A DNA stretch of 25,190 nt, taken from positions 1 to 25,190 of the forward strand of contig JAYOTF010000043.1 in assembly GCA_038150265.1 (NCBI GenBank), given 5' to 3'. Each line of letters opens with the position of its first letter. The stretch's first letter is position 1. The position numbers were made by a program, and so were the translations under genes. This DNA is from Deltaproteobacteria bacterium. GTDB lineage: Bacteria; SAR324; NAC60-12. Shown here one piece after another: positions 1 to 1,902 of the stretch. The notes under the pieces were generated by a model. It saw nothing but the letters and a program-made list of their open reading frames with translations. It was not told where the DNA came from and did not search any database.

Positions 1-1752
1 TTGGCAGTAAGGGTCTTGGTAGATTGTGGTTTCATTGAAAGCCCGGGACCAGTAGCCAATGCGAGCGGCCTCGTTGGAAAGCAAGCGGATCTCGTTGGCT
101 TCCCGGATCTGCATGAGCTGCTGCTCCCGCTCGGTGACATCAATGGCGACCCCGACCAGGCGGAGGCCGCGGCCCATGTCCCTGGCCTGAACGTAGTGAT
201 CAACGAAGATCTCAGTCTGGTCCGGGAGCAGCAAGTGAAAGAAGTTCTTCACGGACTCTCCCTGGAAGGCGCGCTCATTGTCACGATTCAGGCGCTCCAG
301 CTGCGCGTCTCGAGTCCGGGGGTGGAGGCGTTGGATGAAGGCGTGGTAATCAGGGCGTTCTTCCTCTCCCAGCTGGTACATCTGCCGCATGCTCTCATCC
401 CACCAGGCTTCCTCCCCGTCCCCTTGAATCCAGAACCCAATGCGCGCATGTTCGGAAATGAGTTCCAGCTGAGCCAGACGCTCCTGAGAGGCTCTGCGGA
501 GGCGGACCTCTTGAGTGATGTCCTGAGAGGTCCCCAGCATGGTCATTTTCCCCTCCAGTAGCCTGATCTGGAAGTCGGAGCGAATCACCCGGGTCCGTCC
601 GCTGGGCAGGTTCATGCGGAATTCGTAGGAGTGCGGAGTGGGCTCCGGAACCACTGCGGAAAACGCGGCTTGCAGGGAGTCGTTGATGATTTTTTCAGAG
701 TGAGGCCGGTCTTGAGGGTCAATGCGCTCCATGAAGCGCTCAAAGAGGTTCTGCTCCTGGAGGTCGACCTCAAAAAGCTCATACCCAAACGGGTCCCAGC
801 TCAAGGTGTTGTCCTCAATGTCCCACGTCCAGTAAGTCACACCAATGGCCCGGTTGGCCAACGCCTGCAGCTCAAGGGTCTCCTCCAGCTCGCGCTGCAG
901 CCTCTCCTTGCGGGTGATGTCCTGGAAGGAGGCAACGAGTGCGGACTCCCCGCTGAACTCAATGAGCTGTGCGCTCACACGAACGGTGACGACTTCCAGC
1001 TCGTTGTTGATCAGCTCCACCCGCATCTGGCTGAAGCTCCATCCCTTCTGAATCGTTTGTGTGAGGAGCTTCCGGGCACTGGGGTCGCGGTAGAAGCTGG
1101 GGGCAAAGCGCTCCAGCAGTTCCGGGACCGTGGCCTTCATCAGGTCGGCCATCTGCTGGTTCGCGTAGAGGACCTTCCCATCGGAGAGCCGCGTGATCAT
1201 CAGGGGCTCCACCGAAGAGTTGAGGATGGCCCGGTAGTTTTGGTTGAGGGTCCTCAGCTCCTGATCCTGGCGCTCCTCCTTGGTGACGTCTCGGTGAGAG
1301 GAAAGGATGAGGAGCTCGCCTTCGTGCTCAATGAGCTTGAAGTGCGAGCGGGTCACAAAGCGCTTCCCGCTGGGAGAAACCACTTCCAGCCGGTAGCCTT
1401 CCAGCTCTCCTGCTGCCTGCAACTCGGTCACCAGCTGCTTCCGGACCTCCGGATCGGGGTAAAGAGCCAGCGCGTCTCGGCCGATGAGCTGATCCACGTC
1501 AGCCCCGAATTGACGAGCCAGCGACGCGTTGGTGTAGACGATGGTCGAGTCGGACACTCGCGTGATCATCAACGCGTCCGTGGAAAAATTGAGCAATTCC
1601 TGAAAGGCCTCCCACGGAAGCTGGGGAGAAGATTGGGGGCTGGAAAAACTTGAAGATGTCAAACGAAAGGCTCCACCATAAGAACTGGTCTGTCTGTCTG
1701 TCTGTCTGTCTGTCTGTCTGTCTGTCTGTCTGTCTGTCTGTAGATTTGTCAT
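1..1752 (-). CDS. Multi-PAS/PAC domain sensor protein, 3'-partial. The output domain lies outside the window (histidine kinase or GGDEF/EAL are likely).
   Basis: Hand translation of the minus frame from ATG 1752 is stop-free to position 1 (584 codons). Four PAC-type ends are seen: 'LILSSHRDVTKEE', 'LVASFQDITRKER', 'MLGTSQDITQE', 'LVGVAIDVTEREQ'. PAS starts include 'ALMITRVSDSTIVYTN', 'PLMITRLSDGKVLYAN', 'GVTYWTWDIEDNTLSWD', 'IGFWIQG' and a fifth beginning 'IGYWSR'. No TM helix is seen. The start is uncertain: ATG 1752, TTG 1662 (GGTGGAG 8 nt upstream), or ATG 1759 after a repeat-length change. Confidence 0.9.
   Translation of the reverse strand, partial: MTNLQTDRQTDRQTDRQTDRQTSSYGGAFRLTSSSFSSPQSSPQLPWEAFQELLNFSTDALMITRVSDSTIVYTNASLARQFGADVDQLIGRDALALYPDPEVRKQLVTELQAAGELEGYRLEVVSPSGKRFVTRSHFKLIEHEGELLILSSHRDVTKEERQDQELRTLNQNYRAILNSSVEPLMITRLSDGKVLYANQQMADLMKATVPELLERFAPSFYRDPSARKLLTQTIQKGWSFSQMRVELINNELEVVTVRVSAQLIEFSGESALVASFQDITRKERLQRELEETLELQALANRAIGVTYWTWDIEDNTLSWDPFGYELFEVDLQEQNLFERFMERIDPQDRPHSEKIINDSLQAAFSAVVPEPTPHSYEFRMNLPSGRTRVIRSDFQIRLLEGKMTMLGTSQDITQEVRLRRASQERLAQLELISEHARIGFWIQGDGEEAWWDESMRQMYQLGEEERPDYHAFIQRLHPRTRDAQLERLNRDNERAFQGESVKNFFHLLLPDQTEIFVDHYVQARDMGRGLRLVGVAIDVTEREQQLMQIREANEIRLLSNEAARIGYWSRAFNETTIYQDPYCQ
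1688..1741. repeat. Perfect tetranucleotide simple sequence repeat (GTCT)13.5, read as AGAC/ACAG on the coding strand
   Basis: Read directly: 54 bp of uninterrupted period-4 repeat, encoding TDRQ repeats on the minus strand. Confidence 0.98.
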
Positions 1753-1902
1753 CAGACATGCCAGTTCTCCCTGGTGGCGGTTGAGTGAGGTGGGATGTCA
1801 GTACTTATGAATGCGGGCAGGGGCGGGAAGGGTCAAGAAAAAAATGGCCTTGGTACCAAGGTAAAAAACCCTCTTTTTGTCCACTCGGGAAAGTGTCCGG
1901 TA

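Follow-up and report, generated by a model that had tools for sequence, protein, structure and literature searches.

A tetranucleotide tract behind two staggered start codons of a multi-PAS sensor kinase gene in a SAR324-group bacterium: a candidate frame switch

Does the long (ACAG)n repeat at the 5' end of a multi-PAS sensor gene act as a stochastic switch on translation, as the first-pass annotation of this locus proposed, or does it work in another way or not at all? The repeat lies in the window, the whole 25,190-nt stretch of DNA analysed here, which opens contig C43 of genome G000, with the kinase gene running off the assembly. The host is probably a free-living SAR324-group bacterium. 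Repeat-driven switching has mostly been studied in host-adapted bacteria, on surface genes or methyltransferases, and it tends to be set against two-component sensing. The reading favoured here, which is moderately probable on the sequence evidence, is a slipped-strand translational switch of the lic1A/lic2A type acting on an orphan histidine kinase.

Re-reading of the minus strand bears out the annotated anatomy of a Shine–Dalgarno (SD)-like site, two staggered ATGs and an ACAG tract, in the order AGGGAG (1772-1767), aactggc, ATG (1759), tctg, ATG (1752), acaaatct and (ACAG)13.5 (1741-1688) (Table 1). The tract is in frame with ATG1752, both ATGs are conserved in G002, another species of the genus, and a conserved NTG also sits 3' of the tract. 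In G000 this is TTG1662, which lies in the PAS frame with the GGAG of its GGTGGAG at 8 nt. The repeat is long, perfect and built from a unit that is not divisible by three, with 13.5 units in G000 and at least 19 units in G002. The annotation had suggested scanning the genome for other such tracts; across the 3.39-Mb G000 genome, this is the only tetranucleotide repeat of at least four units, with a chance expectation for such a tract of ~1e-25 per genome.

Table 1. Coordinates of the features at the kinase locus, given as positions in the window (G000).
Feature	Position	Strand	Remarks
5' part of cytoplasmic multi-PAS histidine kinase	1..1752	-	cut by contig end
Post-tract segment	1659..1687	-	+1 frame PVLMVEPFV stops at TGA 1661-1659, overlapping TTG1662
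Alternative internal start TTG1662 with GGTGGAG	1660..1677	-	GTG without SD in G002
Predicted stem pairing tract flanks 1777-1761 with 1688-1673	1673..1777	-	G000 only; covers both SD-like sites
Perfect (ACAG)13.5 tract	1688..1741	-	encodes (TDRQ)n in every frame
Two-start cassette C-ATG(1759)-TCT-S-ATG(1752)-ACAAATCT	1742..1760	-	conserved, 18/19 bases identical in G002
Third frame shut by TGA overlapping ATG1752	within 1742..1760	-	
SD-like AGGGAG	1767..1772	-	7 nt to ATG1759, 14 nt to ATG1752
Sigma70-like promoter candidate TTGACG-17-TATCTT	1903..1931	-	143 nt 5' of ATG1759; presumed use
folD homologue, upstream	2047..2979	-	synteny anchor in G000 and G002

The frame arithmetic of the annotation is correct, as an in silico table over repeat numbers gives the same states. 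With 13 units the PAS frame is entered from ATG1752, and translation from ATG1759 would give a product of 86 aa ending at 1499; with 12 or 15 units ATG1759 is in the PAS frame, and with 11 or 14 units neither ATG is. Expressed as the number of units (n) modulo 3, the table is identical in G000 and G002 (0, first ATG; 1, second ATG; 2, neither). The two ATGs are not equivalent in their spacing from the SD-like site. Among the 480 training starts of G000, a GGAG at 4-7 nt from the start forms the spacing peak (66/480) and one at 13-14 nt does not occur (0/480), which makes ATG1759 the favoured start and ATG1752 a weak one, in agreement with the annotated spacings of 7 nt as optimal and 14 nt as poor. 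The first ATG of G002 is preceded by GGTGA at 5 nt in place of AGGGAG, and an SD-like site thus stands 5-7 nt 5' of the first ATG in both species, with differing sequence. The SD case is weaker for G002, since GGTG at 6 nt precedes none of the 480 training starts. The anti-SD applied was the canonical sequence, as no 16S tail was found in the G000 assembly. In a crude genome-trained model of start sites, the two ATGs score at the 62nd-90th percentile of training starts.

The gene behind the tract encodes a sensor. Four complete PAS-like repeats and the beginning of another fall within the window, two of the four with clear Pfam matches and two with weak ones. Internal matches in the G002 orthologue give five PAS-like repeats, with Pfam clear for the first two, and it is on these that the annotated figure of at least five PAS domains depends. 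The orthologous frame of 926 aa comprises the PAS repeats, HisKA and HATPase_c without a receiver domain, and the protein has no membrane span (maximum hydropathy 0.87). HATPase_c is matched at E 3e-20 and HisKA at E 6e-5, under the curated cut-off, with the His in EINHDLKQPL. From its 62% identity with the G002 protein, we infer that the G000 output is also a histidine kinase. The output domain that the annotation had hoped to reach by extending the contig is thus visible in G002, whereas the C-terminal half of the G000 protein is absent from the G000 assembly, where the best matches are 46% paralogues. The oxidase gene downstream of the G002 kinase was likewise not found in G000 (best match 29%). 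Because the next gene in G002 is convergent, the kinase is regarded as an orphan.

The neighbourhood shows several further features. At 2047-4540 of the window, the folD homologue and a class III aminotransferase gene stand back to back, an arrangement present in all three genomes of the genus (G000, G001 and G002); a second FolD, 38% identical, exists in G001 and G002. Paralogues of the multi-PAS kinase are expanded in the genus, and in G000 they occur on contigs C4, C5, C13, C21, C51, C56, C59 and C72, with 30-37% identity in the PAS region and no long tetranucleotide tract in any of them. Two genes past the G002 kinase, on the opposite strand, lies a repetitive adhesin-like ORF of more than 1350 aa (L021:3930-8000, G002:C40).

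Among 40 relatives, an orthologue was found in G002 only, with 61-62% identity. At the folD locus of G001 the gene is missing and there is no tract; the best G001 match is a 37% paralogue, and the gene directly after folD is one that we take to be an anhydro-sugar-kinase-like ORF. The G002 assembly breaks within the tract: its contig C41 ends with 41 nt of repeat on the folD side and C40 opens with 77 nt of repeat on the kinase side, from which the minimum of 19 units follows. Between the two lineages the repeat thus measures 54 nt in G000 and at least 77 nt in G002, a difference at the species level only. In both species the kinase frame runs open from the tract into the PAS region, with the same phase. 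Identity between G000 and G002 is 45% at four-fold sites of the kinase and 49% in intergenic DNA. Against this background the cassette before the tract stands out: its flanks have diverged, and windows as conserved as the cassette number 0/239 in intergenic DNA, 0/77 in the linker and 18/1555 in the PAS ORF, all of this conservation being that of one species pair. The comparison with orthologues that the annotation had called for therefore returns the same cassette and frame table with a longer tract.

Within the phylum, (ACAG)6 is present in 4 of 88 genomes (G000, G002, G006 and G011). G006, a 12-Mb assembly, carries several (ACAG)n tracts scattered on separate contigs, which are possibly non-bacterial contamination. 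G011, of the same family, has a possible second, independent contingency locus in the gene of an SpvB-domain/FG-GAP protein (L027:1500-1533, G011:C32), where the 5' part encoding a hydrophobic, signal-peptide-like stretch contains (CTGT)8 and the closest ATG on the upstream side is in another frame. The junction pattern had 0 matches in metagenome contigs, in which a protein scan found 2 distant loci. Protein searches returned one close match, P0004, and none among shorter proteins; an exact protein look-up gave no match to the kinase of the window under any start tried. P0004 differs from the G002 protein at 10 of 859 residues and begins at an internal Met, and as its gene caller also skipped the always-in-frame GTG, it is uninformative on the state of the tract. 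The best sources of this DNA among sequencing runs are estuary and aquatic metagenomes. In the 4 runs examined of 21 listed (2 studies), long pieces occur at ≥99% identity, and at least one contig enters the masked repeat zone by ~30 letters in 4/4; no assembled contig spans the tract in these 4 runs.

If the tract is a frame switch, replication slippage would change n in single cells, and n modulo 3 would set kinase output. At n = 0 mod 3, the SD-backed ATG1759 would give the whole kinase lengthened by a short (TDRQ)n stretch, a high state. At n = 1 mod 3, the assembled state, only the poorly spaced ATG1752 would be in frame, giving a low state. At n = 2 mod 3, ribosomes from ATG1759 would stop at the TGA overlapping TTG1662, so that the kinase is either off or made as a reinitiated, tract-less protein. 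Cells would in this way come to differ heritably in a single orphan two-component pathway. Four-base loops may evade mismatch repair.

The third of these states deserves attention. In both species, the first-ATG peptide made at n = 2 mod 3 stops at a TGA inside an NTGA that overlaps the third start, and the +1-frame tails have the same segment length with different residues (PVLMVEPFV in G000 vs PLFILKYFL in G002). Over the 24 nt before the TGA, the two species are identical at 1, 2 and 7 of 8 sites by kinase-frame codon position, a pattern that corresponds to second positions in codons of the +1 frame (post hoc p ~0.007, from a single species pair). In PMC3711429, conserved stop-start co-location is described as a signature used for translational coupling, and a conserved stop overlapping a downstream start, in the form of NTGA, is what G000 and G002 have. 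Counting against a coupling signal, an A directly follows the NTG in 32% of training starts. As the short peptide ends on the TGA overlapping the third start, the "neither" state may be one of coupling and not off. Of the high, low and off positions that had been proposed, the table supports the scheme, and the off position is in doubt. A more elaborate reading, possible although on balance unlikely, is a three-position rheostat combining slipped-strand phase variation with translational coupling, in which the kinase would be made from a strong start, from a weak start, or by way of a leader peptide with a conserved hydrophobic tail, the stop of which overlaps a third start and hands ribosomes to a tract-less kinase. 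The genome, that of a probably free-living SAR324 bacterium, would have no other contingency locus of this kind, and as this one acts on a cytoplasmic sensor, the cell would randomise the gain of a sense-and-respond pathway.

Elements that could act before translation were sought around the tract. The spacing of the G000 promoter candidate is one that is enriched genome-wide, as TTGACN-N17-TA...T occurs 55 times at 17 nt vs 6-29 times at other spacings, and in G002 a candidate TTGACA-17-TAACTT stands 56 nt before the first ATG. No sigma70 box abuts the tract (within ~12 nt), the best score being 5/12 in both species. A sigma54-like TGGCAT-N5-ATGAC is present in G000, which encodes sigma54; the -12 C is missing from it, and in G002 the -24 G is missing as well. 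The duplex of the G000 tract flanks has -24.3 kcal/mol and is matched in stability by 7/2000 shuffles (G002, 473/2000), and the folding of the whole leader reaches a z of only -1.6 (G000); the predicted G000 stem could hide ATG1759. The 19-mer cassette has no other copy at ≤3 mismatches in G000. It contains TGTC-N4-GACA, in whose spacer the single substitution between G000 and G002 falls and which is not enriched (30 vs 12-46 at other spacings). A sigma54 promoter, a transcription-factor palindrome and a conserved RNA stem are all unsupported across both species. Rfam gave two chance snoRNA matches only. In the leader of the G002 kinase (L022:160-179), a perfect inverted repeat, TTGACCAA-N4-TTGGTCAA, lies over the promoter candidate; the palindrome of the G000 leader differs and reads CCTTGGTACCAAGG at 1861-1848.

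The wider distribution of such tracts was assessed by scanning GTDB for (ACAG)7 preceded by two ATGs; the scan gave at least 119 stretches, of which 80 were listed, in a sample biased by the two-ATG filter. Among the listed loci, the tract lies within 12 nt after a sigma70-like promoter in 43/80 (controls 16/684 and 4/65) and after a sigma54-like site in 6/80 (control 2/684). Downstream ORFs were scanned at 52 of 56 loci (up to the first 300 aa; the other four, of low complexity, were omitted), and 28 had a Pfam match; the matches of the listed loci include 5 glycosyl/sugar transferases, 5 acyltransferases, 3 VWA proteins and 3 signalling proteins. Judging by the loci listed, (ACAG)n is a frequent element of the contingency type that often lies in leaders. 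That these loci mostly abut a promoter, and not a start codon, counts against a frame switch. The window locus is without an abutting promoter in both species, which sets it apart from the promoter-abutting leader elements. The promoter-abutting (ACAG)7-30 element is widespread (L079-L158), with promoters resembling TTGACA-N16/18-TANNNT, and the genes 3' of it are, among the loci listed, often those of glycosyl- or acyltransferases and surface proteins. At 13/80 listed loci, a tract-complementary stretch and a T-run within 45 nt form a terminator-like arrangement. At L085, L090, L094, L104, L115 and L147, which are deltaproteobacterial and related, the tract comes directly after a sigma54-like TGGCA-N6-(T/A)TGC; the gene that follows encodes a PAS protein at L085, a CheB/CheR protein at L104 and, at the sigma70-like L122, a GGDEF protein.

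These observations bear on an alternative that is rather unlikely in our estimate, namely that the kinase starts at TTG1662/GTG and that the tract is a tuner in the 5' leader, acting by its length on the level, stability or folding of the mRNA, with the conserved 19 bases as a promoter or operator element. In its favour, the TTG1662 position is a GTG in G002 at equal distance from the tract, and the following TGACAYCTTCAAG is also conserved. The internal start scores at the 55th percentile in G000 and at the 97th in G002, where it is the best-scoring start. An NTG kept in position and top-scoring in G002 means that the kinase could be made whatever n, and the caveat of the annotation that TTG1662 is perhaps the real start stands. 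The promoter-linked tracts among the listed GTDB loci, the sigma54-like site in a genome encoding sigma54 and the position of the sole cassette substitution agree with a leader role as well, and PMC7302503 provides the precedent of uspA2, with transcriptional variation via an upstream AGAT tract. However, neither species has an abutting sigma70 match, the sigma54-like sites lack the bases named above, the 19-mer is single-copy and TGTC-N4-GACA unenriched, and a leader tuner leaves the two conserved ATGs and the SD before the first of them unexplained.

It is improbable that the tract is a microsatellite without selective effect, or a stable one, lying in an N-terminal linker that tolerates it, and that one start is used constitutively. 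MutS and MutL are intact in G000, the length difference in hand is one between species only, and the gene is missing at the G001 folD locus, all of which would fit neutrality. However, a perfect repeat of 54-77 nt kept in place while silent sites approach saturation, and the sole tract of this kind in its genome, is hard to obtain by drift, and most slips of a 4-nt unit disrupt the coding frame. An assembly or binning artefact, which the fragmented assembly and the gene cut at a contig end might suggest, is hardly credible: the same tract and flanks recur at the same place in the independent species G002, and contigs from 4 runs of 2 studies enter the repeat zone. The frame switch draws on the conserved cassette, the frame table, the length difference between species and the kinase output, and these carry the earlier stochastic-switch reading too; the possible internal start and the uncertain off state weigh against it.

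By its anatomy and the between-species length difference, the locus is a candidate member of the SSR phase-variable loci. It resembles lic1A (licA), lic2A, lgtC and mod of Haemophilus influenzae in its long perfect tetranucleotide tract behind start codons in different frames, its predicted hydrophilic N-terminal tetrapeptide repeat and its conservation across sister species; the unit is the GACA of lgtC. The initiation codons of lic2A were reportedly treated by Dixon et al. in 2007. For licA, PMC2992063 places several start codons immediately 5' of the tetranucleotide tract, and lgtC GACA tracts span 8-38 units according to PMC2651432. Unlike the Haemophilus loci, which act on methyltransferases or enzymes for surface structures, this one has a cytoplasmic sensor kinase as its target; the host is aquatic and uncultured, the tract is the single one of its kind and is followed by a conserved stop/start overlap, and switching is predicted.

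Repeat-tract variation in two-component genes is known from Bordetella BvgS and Campylobacter FlgS/FlgR. In Helicobacter pylori ArsS, a poly-C run changes from C15 to C14, according to PMC12838425. As in these genes, a simple repeat would shift the frame of a two-component gene here; however, theirs are homopolymer runs in host-adapted pathogens (that of ArsS near the 3' end), whereas the window locus has a tetranucleotide at the 5' end with alternative starts, which predicts graded states. With the (AGAT)n of Moraxella catarrhalis uspA2 it shares a long tetranucleotide tract near the transcript 5' end, but the uspA2 tract is non-coding, sits 132 bp before the ORF and works through the amount of transcript (PMC7302503), whereas here two conserved ATGs stand 5' of a repeat through which the open frame passes. 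SSRs are also found in phase-variable mod genes of environmental bacteria (PMC5909438); they too represent SSR switching of a regulator outside pathogens, and mod acts via DNA methylation. That paper sets contingency switching against the "sense and respond" mode of two-component regulation, whereas the window locus appears to join the two in one gene. The meeting of phase variation and signalling is a recent theme, according to a 2025 review (PMC11868660). Within the open-access literature searched, no report was found of a sensor kinase under a 5' multi-start switch built on a tetranucleotide, nor of phase variation in SAR324.

If the frame switch is real, bet-hedging would be built into the signalling of an environmental lineage and kept across two aquatic species. 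The tract would then also offer a single marker locus, the allele spectrum of which could be read from metagenomes along environmental gradients.
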